Below are positions 12,073 to 57,195 of a stretch of 64,000 nucleotides of DNA, piece after piece. The stretch's first letter is position 1. Every line of letters begins with the position of its first letter. The DNA comes from an uncultured Candidatus Saccharibacteria bacterium. GTDB taxonomy: Bacteria; Patescibacteriota; Minisyncoccia; RBG-13-40-8-A. Position numbers and translations under genes: made by a program. The notes beneath the pieces are model-generated. The model did no database searches. It saw nothing but the letters and a program-made list of their open reading frames with translations, and was not told the DNA's origin. The stretch spans positions 553,787 to 617,786 of the forward strand of contig OZ246412.1 of the NCBI GenBank assembly GCA_965231075.1, written 5' to 3'.

Positions 12073-12237
12073 GAACTTGTCCTATAACTGCGGGGTGGGG
12101 ATAACTTGTTTAGAACATTATTTTAGAAAAACAAAATTCGTCGATGTCAAGAGCAAAAACACTCTATTTTGGCTCTAAAAATACAATATTGTCTCGAAAC
12201 CTTGATATTGACGAAATCAACAAAACTTATCCACAAT

Positions 12238-13773
12238 ATGAATAAAGTTTATTCAGCGGCAATCACAGGGCTTGAAGCTGAACCCATAGAAGTGGAGGCA
12301 GATTTATCGTCTGGGCTCCGCTTTTTTAGTATTGTCGGCCTTCCCGATAAGTCGGTTGAAGAGTCCAAAGAAAGAATCGCTGCTGCGATTAAAAATAGTG
12401 GCGCCGAACCACCCCACAAACAAAATAAGCGCGTGATTATCAATCTCGCACCCGCCGATTTACGCAAAGAAGGTTCGGGATATGATTTACCAATCGCTTT
12501 AAGTTTTTTGTTGTCCTCTGAACAAATTAAATTTGATCCTAACGATAAAATTTTTATTGGCGAACTGGCTTTAAATGGCGAGGTGCGTAGAGTTAATGGA
12601 GTTTTGCCGATGTGTTTAATGGCCAAAGAAAAAGAAATTAAAAATGTTTTTATTCCTAAATCAAATAGTAATGAAGCGCGATTGGTCGATGGTTTAAATA
12701 TTTATCCTGTGGATTCGTTGGCAGAGTTAATTGGATTTTTAGAAAATCGAATTGAGATTATTCCGCTCGAACCATTAAATGAGGATTTTTTGGAGGGATT
12801 TGAAACTGCGTTTCAGGCAACGGTTGATATGGCCTATATTAAGGGCCAAGAAAATGCTAAACGCGCATTAGAAATTGCCGCCAGTGGAAATCATAATGTT
12901 CTGATGACTGGCCCACCAGGTTCAGGAAAAACTTTACTCGCCAAGGCGATTCCCACGATTTTGCCAAAAATGTCTTGGTCGGAAATGTTAGAAGTAACTA
13001 AAATTTATAGTGTATCGGGAAAGCTTTCACATAAAAAACCCTTAATTCATCAGAGGCCATTTCGCTCCCCTCATCATAGTGCCTCCGAAGCGAGTTTGAT
13101 TGGGGGCGGGGGATTTGCTAGGCCGGGAGAGATAACTTTGGCGCATAGGGGAGTTTTGTTTATCGACGAATTCCCGGAAGTGCATCGCGATGTTCTGGAA
13201 AGCTTAAGACAACCACTTGAGGATGGAGTTGTGCATGTTTCACGAGCGAAAGCGAGTTATAGTTTCCCGTCTCGATTTATTTTAATTGCGGCAATGAACC
13301 CTTGCCCTTGCGGATATTACGGCGATCCCGAAAAACAGTGCACTTGCAATCAGCAACAAATTAGCAAATATCAACGCAGAGTTTCTGGACCAATTATGGA
13401 TAGAATTGATTTATATGTCGAAGTGCCACATGTTAAATACGAAAAACTGACCGACGAATCAGTTGAAGGTTCAAGCGAAGAAATTCGACAAAAAGTGGAG
13501 AAAGCGAGAAAAATTCAATTAGAAAGATTTAAAGACGACCACATTGTTACTAATTCAGAAATGAATATTCCGTTAGTTAAAAAGCATTGTCAGACCGACG
13601 CACGAGGTGAAATGTTGTTAAAAAACGCCGTAAATAATCTACATATGTCTGCGCGTGGTTACCATCGTATTTTAAAACTTGCTCGCACCATTGCTGACCT
13701 CGCCGACTCGCCCAACATCACTCATATCCACATTGCCGAAGCACTACAATATCGACCGAAGATGGAAATATAG
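12238..13773 (+). CDS. comM: YifB/ComM-family Mg-chelatase-like AAA+ ATPase
   Basis: Walker A GPPGSGKT, Walker B LFIDEF, CPCGYYGDPEKQCTC zinc-finger-like motif; typical YifB N-terminus (MNKVYSAAITG). The ORF track starts at a TTG at 12169; the ATG at 12238 is more likely. Confidence 0.85.
   Translation: MNKVYSAAITGLEAEPIEVEADLSSGLRFFSIVGLPDKSVEESKERIAAAIKNSGAEPPHKQNKRVIINLAPADLRKEGSGYDLPIALSFLLSSEQIKFDPNDKIFIGELALNGEVRRVNGVLPMCLMAKEKEIKNVFIPKSNSNEARLVDGLNIYPVDSLAELIGFLENRIEIIPLEPLNEDFLEGFETAFQATVDMAYIKGQENAKRALEIAASGNHNVLMTGPPGSGKTLLAKAIPTILPKMSWSEMLEVTKIYSVSGKLSHKKPLIHQRPFRSPHHSASEASLIGGGGFARPGEITLAHRGVLFIDEFPEVHRDVLESLRQPLEDGVVHVSRAKASYSFPSRFILIAAMNPCPCGYYGDPEKQCTCNQQQISKYQRRVSGPIMDRIDLYVEVPHVKYEKLTDESVEGSSEEIRQKVEKARKIQLERFKDDHIVTNSEMNIPLVKKHCQTDARGEMLLKNAVNNLHMSARGYHRILKLARTIADLADSPNITHIHIAEALQYRPKMEI
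13520..13773 (+). repeat. Direct repeat copy 1: native 3' end of comM (second copy at 15155..15408, ~95% identical)
   Basis: By-eye alignment of 13526-13773 with 15161-15408 shows ~12 substitutions; encoded peptides are identical except H to Y. Confidence 0.8.
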
Positions 13774-14627: not shown

Positions 14628-15152
14628 ATGGGGCAATCAATTAGAAAAAACCGTCCCAAAGAAGGAGGACGGGTTTTTAGAAGGGGCGTTTCCGTGCTTA
14701 TTGTAAACAATAAAAATGAATTTTTGCTTATAAATCTACAATCTTTTGCGGAGCATTTTTTCGCTGTTCCTGGTGGCGGGATAGAAAAAAACGAATCTTT
14801 AATTGATGCTGCGTATCGAGAAATACAAGAAGAGCTCGGAATACGCAAATCATTTCTTGAGTTCGTCGGAGAGTGTAAAAAACCAAATAAGTTTACGTTT
14901 AAAGTGAAGAAACTTAATCGTGATGGCGTTATATATGACGGACAAGAAAGATATTTTTTTGGTTTTAAATTCACAGGAGGTGATAGTGAAATTAAATTAC
15001 GATCAGAAGAGGTGCGCAGATATAAATGGGTTACATACGAAAATCTAAAAAATTATCTTTTGTTTGATAATCAGTTACAGGCAACATTAGAGAAATTGTT
15101 AGAGTTATTTCCCGATGCCCGTAGCGAAAAAAGAAAATGGCGTCAAAAATGA
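14628..15152 (+). CDS. NUDIX hydrolase
   Basis: Nudix box GGGIEKNESLIDAAYREIQEELGI (GX5EX7REUXEEXGU). Confidence 0.7.
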   Translation: MGQSIRKNRPKEGGRVFRRGVSVLIVNNKNEFLLINLQSFAEHFFAVPGGGIEKNESLIDAAYREIQEELGIRKSFLEFVGECKKPNKFTFKVKKLNRDGVIYDGQERYFFGFKFTGGDSEIKLRSEEVRRYKWVTYENLKNYLLFDNQLQATLEKLLELFPDARSEKRKWRQK

Positions 15153-15154
15153 GG

Positions 15155-15408
15155 TTAAAAGATTTAAAGATGACCACATTGTCACAAATTCAGAAATGAA
15201 TATTCCATTAGTCAAAAAGCACTGTCAGACCGACGCACGAGGTGAAATGTTGTTAAAAAACGCCGTAAATAATCTACATATGTCTGCGCGTGGTTACCAT
15301 CGTATTTTAAAACTTGCTCGCACCATTGCTGACCTCGCCGACTCACCCAACATCACTTATATCCACATTGCCGAAGCACTACAATATCGACCAAAAATGG
15401 AAATATAA
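15155..15408 (+). pseudogene. Duplicated 3' fragment of comM (C-terminal ~83 codons), remnant of an insertion or duplication event
   Basis: ORF 15115..15408 encodes ...FKDDHIVTNSEMNIPLVKKHCQTDARGEMLLKNAVNNLHMSARGYHRILKLARTIADLADSPNITYIHIAEALQYRPKMEI, near-identical to the comM C-terminus; it has no ATPase domain and no credible independent start. Confidence 0.75.
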
Positions 15409-31989: not shown

Positions 31990-33165
31990 ATGAACACAAA
32001 ACTTAAAAAGGTATTAATCATCATCGTGATAATCTTGATTGTCGCATTAGCAGGACTTCTGGTCTACAATTTTGTTATTAGAAAGAACATTGAAGACGAA
32101 AACAATAATGGCAATCTCCCCGGAGAACAACCAAACATCGACAATCAGGATCAAAATCAAGACCAGGGTGACACCGAACAACTAATATCAGAACGAAAGA
32201 TTATTGCAATTAGCACTGATCCCGTATTATCTCCAACAATCACCAACAATAAAACAAGTGTGATTTATTATTCGAAAACAAATGGCAATATTATTCAATC
32301 CGATTTCGATGGATTAAATAAAATTACGATATCTGATACAAATCTCGATAATCTCCTACAGGTATTTTGGGCGCAGAGCAAAGACAAAACCATAACCGTG
32401 TTTCAGGACAATATTGGTAACACTAGCAAATATTATTATAATATTCCTACTAAAAAATCGTTTCCTCTAAATAAGTTTATAAATTATATCTCTTGGTCTT
32501 CAGACGGCTCTAAAATCGTTTATCAATATCAAAACGATGATACGGGCGAAAACACAATCAGTGTATCGAATCCTGACGGATCAAGATATTCTGTAATTCT
32601 TAATACTCGAATGAAAAATCTAATCATCAATTGGCCCAAAGGATCAACTATTTACCTACAAGAAAGACCGTCAGGATTGGCGCAGAGTAGCTTATACTCA
32701 TTAAACTATCTATCTAAAGCATTTAATAAGGTAGTATCGAATCTTTATGGATTTAGTCTGAAATGGTCATCTGGTGGCAATAAAATACTTTATTCTAAAA
32801 CAAATTCCGAAGGAGAAAATATCGGCTTATACATTGCAAACAGTAATGGGTCTAGTGAAAAAGCATTGGATGTTCAAACATTAATCGAAAAGTGTGCATG
32901 GTCCCAAGACACAAGATACATCTTCTGCGCAATACCAAATAATATTTCTGATGCAAAAATACTGCCTGATGATTTTTATAAGGGGGTATTCGTCAGCGAT
33001 GATGAATTCTATAAAATCAACATTGAAACTGGTGAAAAAACCAATCTGTTTGATAAAAGCTTAGAAGAATCATTTGACGCAGACGAGTTGTTCCTTTCGC
33101 CGAATGAAGATTATTTATTCTTTGTAAATAAAAATAACGGACTATTATACCGTATAAAAATTTAA
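31990..33165 (+). CDS. Membrane-anchored TolB-like beta-propeller (PD40/WD40-like repeats) protein
   Basis: N-terminal TM anchor; repeated SxDGSKIVY / WSSGGNKILYSK motifs. Confidence 0.55.
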   Translation: MNTKLKKVLIIIVIILIVALAGLLVYNFVIRKNIEDENNNGNLPGEQPNIDNQDQNQDQGDTEQLISERKIIAISTDPVLSPTITNNKTSVIYYSKTNGNIIQSDFDGLNKITISDTNLDNLLQVFWAQSKDKTITVFQDNIGNTSKYYYNIPTKKSFPLNKFINYISWSSDGSKIVYQYQNDDTGENTISVSNPDGSRYSVILNTRMKNLIINWPKGSTIYLQERPSGLAQSSLYSLNYLSKAFNKVVSNLYGFSLKWSSGGNKILYSKTNSEGENIGLYIANSNGSSEKALDVQTLIEKCAWSQDTRYIFCAIPNNISDAKILPDDFYKGVFVSDDEFYKINIETGEKTNLFDKSLEESFDADELFLSPNEDYLFFVNKNNGLLYRIKI

Positions 33166-33180
33166 CAAATTATATTCTAA

Positions 33181-33214
33181 AAGAGCTCTCAATTTTATCG
33201 GAGCTCTTTTTTGT
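33181..33214 (+). terminator. Rho-independent terminator ending the 21423-33165 operon
   Basis: aagagctc-tcaattttatcg-gagctctt followed by tttt. Confidence 0.7.
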
Positions 33215-34412
33215 TTATTAATGTTAATCCGATAATCACCCAAAATATTATAGATAGATCGTTTTTCCAATAAGTCGTATCAACTAGGCCATGAGCAAGA
33301 ATATAAATCATCAGTATTGTAATTATCAAGTTCCCGTTTTCAATTTTCAATCCTCTAATGAAGAACCACGCCAATACAAGAATAAACCCGACAAAACCGA
33401 TTAATCCAGTCTGAATTAAAAATGCTAGAAATATATTATGTGGCTGTGGCACGCCCCACTTGGGATAGGGCGGAAAATAATCCTCAAATGTTCCTGGTCC
33501 AATTCCAGTCAAAGGATGTTGCAAAAAAACATCAATCGCCTGTCCCCATATCACGAATCTCGCGTCAAAAGATTTCAGCCCATCCAACGATCTTATCTTT
33601 ATTAGTCCAATGACCATAATTATAGCGAAAATAACACAAATAACACTCAATAACAATTTCTTCTTGTTTCGTTGATATAGATAAATCGCTAACCAGAATC
33701 CACCAGCCACCAAAACACCCAATAGGACACCGAAAGATTTAGTAAAAAACAATACAACAAGAAACAAGACACAAGATACAAGATACAAAAATAAGCGGAT
33801 ATTTGTTCGCAACAAAGTCCGCATCGGAAGCCGACCGCAGTCGGCTGAGATAGAGTGCGATTTCGCATTGCGAAATCGACACGTGTCTTTGTGTGAACAA
33901 ATATCCGCTATTAATAAAATCAGCGGCACAGCCAGATACATTGCTAAGTAATTTGGCGAATCAAATATCCCCTGCAATCTCCCCTGATAATTAAATGTCC
34001 TCGAGAACAAATAAACTAGCGAAATAACTGCCACTACAACTCCCGAATAGATCATTGTTTTGAATACGTTCTGAACATCGTCTTTTTTAATCGCTGACAC
34101 GAAAACAGCAAAAAACATTAACGGATCAATGAACCACGCCTTCCAAATTCCTGCACTCAATCTCACGTTCCAAGAAAACAAGACTGCAATGCTTACTCCA
34201 GAAATCAACAATAAAACTCCCCAAACCAATAATCTTTCGTGTTTTATTGTTTTCCAAAACTTTTTATATCCTCCGCCCACCAACCACCAAATAAAGAGTG
34301 CATAAATTAATAATTCCAACGCCGTTGTTGGAATTTTGAATATATTAAATCTAACCAAGTATAGTGGTAAGCAGAAAATAATTAAATATACTCCCCGCCT
34401 TAAATTATTCAT
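33195..34412 (-). CDS. O-antigen ligase/Wzy-like polytopic membrane protein carrying an in-frame 114-bp repeat-element insertion
   Basis: About 10 TM helices; Wzy_C-like motif HNIFLAFLIQTGLIGFVG; the insertion is translated as the Cys/Arg-rich loop CSHKDTCRFRNAKSHSISADCGRLPMRTLLRTNIR. Confidence 0.55.
   Translation of the reverse strand: MNNLRRGVYLIIFCLPLYLVRFNIFKIPTTALELLIYALFIWWLVGGGYKKFWKTIKHERLLVWGVLLLISGVSIAVLFSWNVRLSAGIWKAWFIDPLMFFAVFVSAIKKDDVQNVFKTMIYSGVVVAVISLVYLFSRTFNYQGRLQGIFDSPNYLAMYLAVPLILLIADICSHKDTCRFRNAKSHSISADCGRLPMRTLLRTNIRLFLYLVSCVLFLVVLFFTKSFGVLLGVLVAGGFWLAIYLYQRNKKKLLLSVICVIFAIIMVIGLIKIRSLDGLKSFDARFVIWGQAIDVFLQHPLTGIGPGTFEDYFPPYPKWGVPQPHNIFLAFLIQTGLIGFVGFILVLAWFFIRGLKIENGNLIITILMIYILAHGLVDTTYWKNDLSIIFWVIIGLTLINKKELR
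33795..33908 (-). mobile_element. MITE-like palindromic repeat element (copy C), 114 bp, inside the Wzy-like CDS
   Basis: 22-bp terminal inverted repeats gcggatatttgttcgcaacaaag / ctttgtgtgaacaaatatccgc flank a core shared with copy B (57053-57128): ACACGTGT palindrome, an 8-bp-stem hairpin, then CTCAGCCGACTGCGGTCGGCTTCCGA. Confidence 0.65.
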
Positions 34413-43156: not shown

Positions 43157-43186
43157 TATTACATTTTAATCATAACATTTATTGCT

Positions 43187-53900: not shown

Positions 53901-54050
53901 ATTCAAATTTATTTTATATGTCGATACGTGTTGGTGCAATCATAAAAATTATTTATTCGTCGATACGCGTCGACGCCCCAGCGTGGCGTCGCGCTCTCTC
54001 TCGGCCTCGCCCTAACCATGCGCTCGGCCTGCGAGGCGATCTCCTTAATA
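53901..54050. repeat. Repeat-family copy A: shared AT-rich terminus plus GTCGATACGTGT motif fused to a GC-rich (~70% GC) hairpin module flanked by 16-bp inverted repeats
   Basis: Left end attcaaatttattttatatgtcgatacgtgt parallels copy B (tttcaaatttattttacatgtcgacacgtgt). Inner IR ataaaaattatttatt / aataaataatttttat brackets cgtcgatacgcgtcgacgccccagcgtggcgtcg...ggcctcgcc...ggcctgcgaggc. Confidence 0.55.
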
Positions 54051-54085
54051 AATAATTTTTATTAAAATTAAAAATTGATATTTTT

Positions 54086-56312: not shown

Positions 56313-56996
56313 TTATAGATTAGCAGAGATTAATTTTTTTGTCCAGTTTTGAGAATTTAGCTCGTTTATTTTTGTGGAATTCTCAATGGAGAATTTACCA
56401 ATTTTGGTTCGGGTTAATGCTTCCAAATAAGCTCCGCAGCCGAGTTTTTGGCCAATATCGTGGGCCAAGCTTCTAATGTATGTGCCACGACTACAATCGA
56501 CCTCGATTTTAAGGCGTGGCCATTCATAATTTAAAATTTTAATGTCGTAAATTTTTATTTTTCTCGGTTTTAATTCTGGTTTTTCGCCTTGCCATGCTAG
56601 CTTGTATGCCCTGACCCCGTTTACTTTAATTGCCGAATGGATTGGTGGCACTTGGTCAATTTCACCGATAAAAGATTTAATTGTATCTTGAACTGTCTGA
56701 ATATTGGGATTTGTTTGGTTGTTGTGTCTTGTATCTTGTGTCTTTTCGCCCTCTACATCATATGTACTCGACGTTTCTCCCAATTTCAATGTTCCAATAT
56801 ATGTCTTTGGCATGTCCATGAACTTGGTCTGTAGTTTGGTTGCGTTGTTAATTAGAATAATAAGCACTCCCTCGGCGAAAGGGTCTAGGGTTCCGGCATG
56901 GCCAACTTTTTTTGTACGGGTGATCTTCTTGATTCGGTCCACAATGTCGTAAGAGGTTGGGCCGGCTGGTTTGTTTATGATTAATATTCCGTCCAT
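56313..56996 (-). CDS. truB: tRNA pseudouridine(55) synthase
   Basis: GILIINKPAGPTSYDIVDRIKKI...VGHAGTLDPFAEGVLIILI with catalytic Asp motif. Confidence 0.9.
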   Translation of the reverse strand: MDGILIINKPAGPTSYDIVDRIKKITRTKKVGHAGTLDPFAEGVLIILINNATKLQTKFMDMPKTYIGTLKLGETSSTYDVEGEKTQDTRHNNQTNPNIQTVQDTIKSFIGEIDQVPPIHSAIKVNGVRAYKLAWQGEKPELKPRKIKIYDIKILNYEWPRLKIEVDCSRGTYIRSLAHDIGQKLGCGAYLEALTRTKIGKFSIENSTKINELNSQNWTKKLISANL

Positions 56997-57034
56997 TGAT
57001 TTGAATTGTAATAAGGGTTATTATTAATCTGAGG

Positions 57035-57152
57035 TTTCAAATTTATTTTACATGTCGACACGTGTTGATTGCTCAAATTGTAGCAATCACACTAACTCTC
57101 AGCCGACTGCGGTCGGCTTCCGAGATTGTCTCAGTGTAAAATAAATTTAAAA
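57035..57152 (+). mobile_element. MITE-like palindromic repeat element (copy B), intergenic upstream of ruvA
   Basis: TIRs tttcaaatttattttaca / tgtaaaataaatttaaaa flank the core TGTCGACACGTGT, hairpin gattgctcaaattgtagcaatc, then CACACTAACTCTCAGCCGACTGCGGTCGGCTTCCGAG. Confidence 0.65.
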
Positions 57153-57195
57153 TATATTTAGAATAATTAGGTTAATTAGAATAATTAGAAATTTA

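Follow-up and report, generated by a model that had tools for sequence, protein, structure and literature searches.

A 64,000-nucleotide stretch of DNA from an uncultured Candidatus Saccharibacteria bacterium (assembly GCA_965231075.1, contig OZ246412.1, positions 553,787–617,786 of the forward strand; hereafter the window) carries a palindromic repeat copy, W1, inside a gene for a Wzy-like membrane protein. W1 probably belongs to a family of structured palindromic interspersed repeats specific to Patescibacteria, resembling the repetitive extragenic palindromic (REP) sequences and their doublets (REPINs), the MITEs (miniature transposable elements with inverted repeats) and the Rickettsia palindromic elements (RPEs). 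Bacterial interspersed palindromic repeats are a known kind, and we file the element as a new family within it. What is new is a repeat family specific to the candidate phyla radiation (CPR) with strong covariation, extreme polarity, a geometry in which the element abuts stop codons, and swapping of modules; one ancient copy has been domesticated or tolerated in a membrane-protein gene.

W1 has the sense orientation of the Wzy gene and lies in-frame within its open reading frame (ORF). The original prediction of an inverted-repeat element inside one uninterrupted Wzy-like ORF (33795–33908) was therewith borne out, with the ends now placed at 33794 and 33909. The host gene and the parts of W1 are the following:

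33195–34412, minus strand: host gene, a Wzy_C / O-antigen-ligase-like membrane protein (405 aa, uninterrupted ORF, Pfam PF04932)
33794–33909, minus strand: W1, the genic repeat copy (116 bp, bounded by an inverted repeat)
33895–33909, minus strand: 5' arm of the outer stem, AGCGGATATTTGTTC (sense), coding for ...ADICS
33879–33886, minus strand: junction box ACACGTGT, invariant in the family alignment A3 but part of the search pattern
33858–33878, minus strand: hairpin P2, CGATTTCGC-AAT-GCGAAATCG, a variable, covarying stem
33824–33849, minus strand: hairpin P3 with its base, CTC-AGCCGAC-TGCG-GTCGGCT-TCCGA, present as two exact copies in the window (none expected)
33794–33808, minus strand: 3' arm of the outer stem, GAACAAATATCCGCT, coding for RTNIR

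The terminal repeat formed by the two arms had been described as perfect over 22 bp. In fact, only 15 bp are perfect (17/18 according to the repeat finder), and pairing further inward needs one mismatch and a 1-nt indel. The ends of W1 read GCGGATATTT...AAATATCCGC, and those of the family read GCTCAGATTT...AAATCTTCGC. The translated stretch is CSHKDTCRFRNAKSHSISADCGRLPMRTLLRTNIR, which confirms the atypical peptide noticed earlier. The 26-mer CTCAGCCGACTGCGGTCGGCTTCCGA, covering P3 and its base, is found exactly twice in the window, at 33824–33849 (minus) and 57098–57123 (plus), with zero occurrences expected from dinucleotide shuffles. Fold z-scores against shuffles were −8.8 for W1 and −7.7 for the second copy (W2, see below). 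A covariance model, R1, was built from A3, an alignment of fifty copies of the family; it matches W1 at 33788–33914 on the minus strand with 96.5 bits, compared to 18 bits on the opposite strand. Beside W1, a 26-nt inverted match (92%) with a CTTGTRT heptamer-like run links 33766–33791, in the adjoining Wzy coding sequence, with 56719–56744, antisense in truB; low-complexity DNA that matches by chance, or a small insertion in truB, may account for it.

Scanning the window with R1 (filters off) gave three full copies: W1 and two intergenic ones, the second of which abuts a truncated copy:

57039–57148, plus strand: W2, intergenic copy between the divergent truB (minus) and ruvA (plus), sense to ruvA
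53944–54060, plus strand: W3b, divergent 'type B' copy, intergenic between fpg/mutM and the next plus-strand gene
53905–53943, plus strand: W3a, truncated main-family left end AAATTTATTTTATATGTCGATACGTGTTG..., abutting W3b

The recurrence of the core at the 57-kb locus, claimed earlier from a ~70-bp segment, holds for the 26-mer, for ACACGTGT and for the invariant hairpin; the copy itself extends over 57039–57148, and the third copy at 53944–54060 had been missed. R1 matches W2 at 57029–57159 (plus, 130.9 bits; minus strand 29.3 bits) and W3b at 53935–54070 (plus, 70.2 bits). When W1 and W2 are aligned, the ACACGTGT box and the invariant hairpin are in common, whereas the stems of the middle hairpin differ in sequence, each being self-complementary, and the same is true of the outer stems. 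W3b has a perfect 14-bp outer stem (AAAAATTATTTATT/AATAAATAATTTTT) and GC-rich hairpins. W3a was found through a direct repeat, D17, with 57036–57067 at the left end of W2 (94%). Weak R1 matches at 43185, 63395, 15710 and others were rejected as ordinary AT-rich or terminator-like hairpins.

Outside the window, an exact 23-mer searched in one genome per species gave three matches, all in metagenome-assembled genomes of Patescibacteria/Saccharibacteria. The looser pattern ACACGTGT-N15-35-CACTNNNTCTCAGCC matched 57 loci in metagenome contigs, comprising ~48 true copies and 9 chance matches. Within ~0.37 Mb of related DNA, R1 recovered 60 sense-strand copies at E<1e-9. In the collections searched, the family was found only in Patescibacteria contigs; it had no match in viral contigs (looser pattern) or in phage and plasmid collections. 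Rfam 15 yielded only 4 tRNAs in the window at the gathering threshold, and a permissive E-value scan of two copies gave only chance-level matches. A literature search for a MITE- or REP-type description of the repeat family in CPR returned nothing relevant, and the family thus appears uncatalogued in Rfam and in the literature searched. Sense scores with R1 are 90–150 bits except for two divergent copies (70 and 56 bits), and the antisense matches among those listed reach 30–42 bits. The element is therefore asymmetric and its orientation can be called safely. In what follows, L-numbers denote the fetched Patescibacteria loci and P-numbers the Wzy ortholog proteins.

Copies are ~105–140 bp long between the ends of the outer stem, which is perfect over 12–15 bp in most of them and has arms that are homologous between copies. 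RNAalifold applied to A3 gave an outer stem of ~14 pairs with a closing GC/GC clamp and conserved pyrimidine-pyrimidine mismatch loops, and inside it a short GACA/UGUC helix followed by a three-way junction. Of the two hairpins at this junction, P2 consists of GUG/CAC plus a variable 8–9-bp stem, whereas P3 combines YUC/GAR with an internal loop, AGCC/GGCU and a tip that varies among three modules: GAC-TGCG-GTC, CCG-YGYGG-CGG, or ACCATGC preceded by a further hairpin of ~30 nt. The length of P2 is fixed at 22 nt, resulting in a 13-codon mini-ORF NTG-TCG-ACA-CGT-GT...CAC-TAA in 39 of 48 main-family copies (alignment A7). It starts with ATG in 33, TTG in 5 and GTG in 1 of them, and its peptide is not conserved across the main-family copies.

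Evidence for a conserved structure comes from covariation. In the 60-copy alignment, 96.5% of the cells are in standard pairs, compared to 78.6% with shuffled and ~42% with slid partners, and double-sided changes occur in 29 of 36 pairs (346 cells); at one covarying pair in the base of P3, for example, U-A is found 48 times, C-G 8 times and A-U 3 times. The compensatory stem changes, noticed at first in two copies, are thus borne out on 60. As for the selection on RNA or DNA structure that was deduced from them, the compensation stands and the RNA level is not established: stem mismatches on the top (sense) strand comprise 15 G·T and 36 A·C, i.e., G·T is not the commoner one, and a DNA hairpin is equally possible.

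The Wzy gene itself is also informative; its homologs in Patescibacteria number in the hundreds. In twenty orthologs, both sides of one loop are well aligned, and the content of this loop varies. It may be a type A insert as in the window (HKDTCRSRN..HSISADCGRLPMR..TNI), a type B insert (KDTRQRPSEALRSVSASPLTMRLGLR, the translation of a W3b-type element), another palindromic insert, or nothing; the translation of W3b matches the type B insert of orthologs P0009–P0017. The ortholog alignment suggested with the original prediction supports an insertion, with type A, other inserts or deletion remnants all at a single loop. Orthologs at 64–71% identity (60–70% in a second estimate) carry the same insert, a sister type or deletion remnants, and the synteny rnpA-yidD-yidC-jag-flippase-Wzy is conserved throughout. 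The type A core is kept in W1, L007, L069 and L068. Its P2 shows compensatory variants (CGATTTCGC/GCGAAATCG, CGATCCCG/CGGGATCG and CAATCCCGC/GCGGGATTG), which together with their loops read CGATCCCG-TAAC-TCGGGATCG and CAATCCCGC-AAT-GCGGGATTG in orthologous genic copies, and the P3 stem of L068 is GACCCGC/GCGGGTC in place of AGCCGAC/GTCGGCT. L070 has a long-P3 relative as genic insert, and L065 and L066 have type B with unrelated outer stems. In L067 (10001–11212, ortholog P0023) the insert is a different palindrome, ATTTCCCCTTG...CAAGGGGAAT, unrecognised by the family model; this could mean that the Wzy loop is a general hotspot or that there is a second repeat family.

Alleles that look empty are informative as well. 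L005 (P0020) has the solo stem only, a 30-bp palindrome GCGAATATTTATTCG|CGAATAAATATCCGC equal to the outer stem minus the interior, and its protein equals the type A relative P0007 (an L068-like allele) minus exactly 29 residues; L004 (P0002) retains the left arm only. Since a stem or an arm is left behind, these apparently empty alleles are deletion derivatives, and type A is ancestral in that group. The earlier length of exactly 38 codons depends on the ends chosen: measured against the deletion alleles, the insert adds 29 aa (P0020) or 32 aa (P0002). Outside a ~60-codon block around the insert, P0007 (type A) shares ~90% identity with P0017 (type B), and this comparison points to a putative allelic block replacement. 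Nucleotide identity across orthologs is 82–90% in the element and 68–70% in the rest of the Wzy gene, and the amino-acid changes in the genic inserts track hairpin complementarity.

The genic versions (four types in nine orthologs) are all open and have lengths in multiples of three, compared to only about half of the intergenic copies having any open sense frame. From this difference, we conclude that the W1 insert is most probably translated. An AlphaFold2 model of the Wzy protein (mean pLDDT 70.7) has the insert as a low-confidence link between helices 153–183 and 197–223, with pLDDT below 50 for residues 176–198 inside the insert. The insert peptide has a charge of about +8/−2 and, according to the positive-inside rule, basic loops face the cytoplasm, which suggests a cytoplasmic location of the loop. 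The earlier idea of a pseudogenisation in progress does not agree with these data: the ORF is uninterrupted, and orthologs only 64–71% identical share the insert in a conserved rnpA-yidC-jag-flippase-Wzy context. Judging from these orthologs, the insertion is therefore old and tolerated. Next to Wzy, relatives have a conserved cluster (window 31990–33165; downstream of Wzy in L005, L065 and L066) of type IV secretion system pilin-like, PrgI-like, TraC-like and VirB4/TraG-like ATPase genes.

The intergenic copies have a very regular placement. They are dense in some loci (four copies in 7.9 kb of L057, three each in L010 and L060) and on one strand per locus. The upstream gene is on the strand of the element in 41 of 44 cases (simple gene calls), and within tandem gene pairs there are ~37 sense copies to 1 antisense. 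A long same-strand ORF ends beside the first paired base on the left in 51 of 60 copies; for 32 of the 51, the gap is −1 to +3 nt (model-based coordinates). On the other side, the start codon of a same-strand downstream gene, where present (n=51), is 4–11 nt beyond the last paired base in 29. Since the median gap between element-free same-strand neighbours is only 6 nt (255 pairs), the element occupies an otherwise minimal spacer and is pressed against the stop codon. TAG is the stop codon upstream of the element in 18 of 51 cases, compared to 16% in the background (p = 7e-4), and TAA often follows its right end, a hint that in some cases the stop codon is supplied or shaped by the left end of the element (TAG|CTCAG). 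A target-site duplication (TA, TAA or TNA) was not detected beyond the control, with flank matches at k=2–4 in 0–8 of 32 copies and in 0.2–5.2 of re-paired flanks; consensus scans for outward promoters or terminators in the arms were at chance level. In L057 (1097–1150) and L054 (~4206), a PAP2-family gene that directly precedes a full copy has its final codons made up of a left-end fragment, CGAATTATTTATACAAAGACACGCGTCAG...; this fragment may be a C-terminal gene extension derived from a decayed element.

Copies at one site are also exchanged, nested and lost. In the near-identical genomes L010 and L060, flanks are 99–100% identical at three orthologous sites. One pair of elements at these sites differs at 2 positions and another at at least a dozen, mostly in P2 and the P3 tip; in the third pair, P2, the P3 type (long versus short) and the outer stem all differ, and the arms are still complementary. 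This pattern goes beyond independent point mutation and, as far as these alignments tell, indicates copy-to-copy conversion or replacement. The site downstream of hydrogenase is filled by different subtypes in L042, L027, L033 and L060. W3 represents a type B copy in or next to decayed main-family remains, and the orthologous site in L013 (3249–3378) has an intact main-family copy.

The explanation that we favour, and hold to be probable, is that the elements are non-autonomous and would be spread and homogenised at the DNA level, through insertion beside or within copies already present and through gene conversion from copy to copy, with hairpin complementarity restored by templated correction or by selection. 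They would be co-transcribed with operons and tolerated there, as the hairpin would fold the insert away and bring stop and start codons together, thus keeping translational coupling. The Wzy copy would go back to a single old insertion, or to few events at one permissive site, in a loop between two transmembrane helices. It would persist because it is open in frame and translated as a basic disordered loop harmless to the enzyme, as in Rickettsia palindromic elements. Several points weigh against this explanation. No clean empty site was seen among the loci examined, nor a mobilising enzyme; no long autonomous element with these ends was found in ~0.45 Mb of loci, and there was no plasmid or phage match. 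Transposition of the family is not demonstrated, because target-site duplications do not exceed those in re-paired flanks. The 37:1 sense bias exceeds the expectation for a neutral selfish element, and a host function could be possible. The conservation of the junction nucleotides across distant hosts could likewise reflect function rather than recent spread, albeit it is partly forced by the search pattern. The idea of translational coupling may only be offered tentatively, and no promoter or terminator signal rises above chance. Finally, the mismatch counts (15 G·T versus 36 A·C) tell neither the selected strand nor RNA from DNA.

An important question is whether the family instead serves its host, as a beneficial cis-acting RNA module of polycistronic mRNAs (RNase III-type processing, stability or translational coupling), with the Wzy copy as a by-product. 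The near-absolute sense orientation and the tight stop/start geometry fit such a module, as do the junction sequences conserved unpaired while the stems covary, the fixed 22 nt of P2 with its mini-ORF in 39 of 48 main-family copies, and the UNCG-type loops of some hairpin tips on the sense strand. However, sense-strand stems lack an excess of G·U over A·C (15 versus 36), and on this strand the conserved internal loops consist of U/C mismatches, where the other strand would give the commoner tandem G·A. Moreover, near-identical genomes swap whole modules, copies decay, nest and get deleted, and most same-strand gene pairs (the 255 pairs mentioned above) do without the element. We consider the host-beneficial module a minority possibility. 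Considerably less probable still is a single-stranded-DNA recombination site for a dedicated enzyme, either an HUH/Y1 transposase as in the REP-RAYT or IS200/IS605 systems or an integron-like integrase acting on attC-like folds, with the polarity reflecting the replication strand. The attC sites (e.g., Vibrio VCRs) are imperfect structured palindromes of 60–140 bp that stand directly after ORF stop codons in one orientation, with structure conserved over sequence and unpaired bases in the stem. The placement, the single orientation and the conservation of structure above sequence, including conserved unpaired bases in the stem, are indeed shared by the family. A site of this kind also agrees with the lack of a target duplication beyond the control, with the A·C/G·T counts that bear no sense-strand RNA wobble signature, with the filling of one site by different family members, and with the co-orientation of W1 and W2/W3b with the likely direction of replication (see below). 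On the contrary, the R''(RYYYAAC)/R'(GTTRRRY) core sites were not seen on reading the ends, and no integrase or Y1 transposase was identified in the loci examined, though no search aimed at a RAYT gene was made in the 64 kb covered of the 626-kb contig. Between copies stand ordinary genes (NDK, PAP2, phosphoribosyltransferase, PNP, DJ-1, FAD oxidase, hydrogenase, LigT, GT2), which are syntenic housekeeping genes rather than cassettes, wherefore an interpretation of the arrays as integron cassettes was rejected. The 37:1 bias is above the usual gene-strand bias, and a long-retained in-frame genic copy is unexpected for an active recombination site.

Two further explanations concern the genic copy alone, and we give hardly any credence to either. 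According to one, the Wzy loop belongs natively to the protein, and its similarity to the intergenic sequence is due to chance or to capture from the gene. Many orthologs do carry the loop, but the 26-mer match has no expected chance occurrence, ~58 intergenic copies stand against a single genic site, the genic changes follow hairpin complementarity and not peptide conservation, some orthologs have only the palindromic stem or one arm, and close relatives hold a different family member at the same site. Orthologs with a native loop lacking repeat similarity, or else no further copies and no covariation, had been named beforehand as outcomes that would speak against a repeat; the native-loop explanation is already contradicted. 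According to the other, an intron-like cleavage at the hairpin base followed by religation would remove the genic copy from the mRNA, giving a protein without the loop. A long hairpin brings the two flanks together, and RNA ligase-like genes exist in these genomes, e.g., LigT beside a copy in L010. In opposition to this, the genic versions are without exception in frame and stop-free and the intergenic ones open only in about half of the cases, as selection on translation predicts, and we know of no bacterial mechanism for hairpin-base cleavage and religation of coding mRNA. Beyond these alternatives, the elements might be more than selfish DNA and constitute a new class of structured nucleic-acid module specific to CPR, which would be either an intercistronic RNA device, with stop and start at the helix bases and a relay mini-ORF, or a folded-DNA substrate of a strand-specific recombinase that swaps hairpin cores; this we regard as rather unlikely.

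Interspersed palindromic repeats of the favoured kind have several counterparts in other bacteria. RPEs are palindromic repeats inserted in-frame in ORFs, translated, inherited and compatible with protein function, and they occupy many unrelated genes, 44 in R. conorii (PMC10969869). The family shares with them the size (~100–150-bp palindromic repeats), the reduced genome of the host, and a Wzy copy that is in-frame, open, probably translated, inherited by orthologs and apparently compatible with the function of the protein. RPEs, which the original prediction did not name, are the closest analogy. The differences are that genic copies account for only 2 of ~52 pattern-sampled ones, both at the same Wzy site, instead of many genes, that the phylum is another and the sequence probably unrelated, and that the family is mainly intercistronic and strongly polar. 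REP/REPIN sequences are likewise high-copy extragenic hairpin-forming repeats of ~100 nt, for which long vertical persistence and compensatory stem changes are described (PMC3116915). A REPIN, however, consists of two inverted REP units arranged symmetrically, unlike the asymmetric three-way-junction core found here (for W2, 131 bits sense and 29 antisense). MITEs of the Correia (CREE)/ERIC/BOX/RUP/SPRITE type are co-transcribed with their neighbours and form mRNA hairpins that RNases can cut (PMC10969869). They resemble the family in size, terminal inverted repeats and multiple copies, but here there is neither a TA or other target duplication nor a promoter signal above chance, and the orientation is near-absolute with the left end abutting the stop codon. 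Of the earlier comparison with Correia/RUP/BOX-type MITEs, the dispersed palindromic family remains, and membership of the MITEs in the strict sense is not supported. The element is short, multi-copy and non-coding (105–140 bp, 60 copies, its only ORF being the non-conserved mini-ORF), and has terminal inverted repeats; target-site duplication did not exceed the re-paired flank control, and no autonomous partner was seen in the ~0.45 Mb of loci. At orthologous sites, same-site replacement, nesting and internal deletions were observed, but not a clean empty site.

Two other features of the window deserve mention. Between 37162 and 40501, a 117-aa ORF of rnpA size (minus) is followed by dnaA-size and dnaN-size ORFs (plus), which were named by synteny with relatives, and the AT-rich spacers there have a GC of ~0.31; the chromosomal origin region is probably within the window. 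W1 (minus) lies to the left of dnaA and W2/W3b (plus) to the right of it, so that they are co-oriented both with transcription and with the likely direction of replication, and their polarity within the window fits either explanation. Separately, a 263-nt direct repeat (94%) connects 13510–13772 with 15145–15407: a comM/YifB-like Mg-chelatase gene (12169–13773) is followed by a ~1.4-kb insert with ORFs of 131, 96 and 174 aa, and beyond it by a duplicate of its own 3' end. This insert resembles a small island that has integrated into the 3' end of comM.

Although the genomes of Patescibacteria are among the smallest and most densely packed known in bacteria, some of them carry a ~120-bp repeat after about every second to third gene. 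The family provides a second, independent case of palindromic DNA within protein-coding genes, in a reduced-genome lineage other than Rickettsia. Its covariation-rich structure (29 of 36 pairs) lends itself to modelling and can be used to annotate CPR genomes and to avert gene-calling errors. Overall, the clean polarity and the stop/start geometry make the question of a selfish repeat versus an operon RNA device directly testable.

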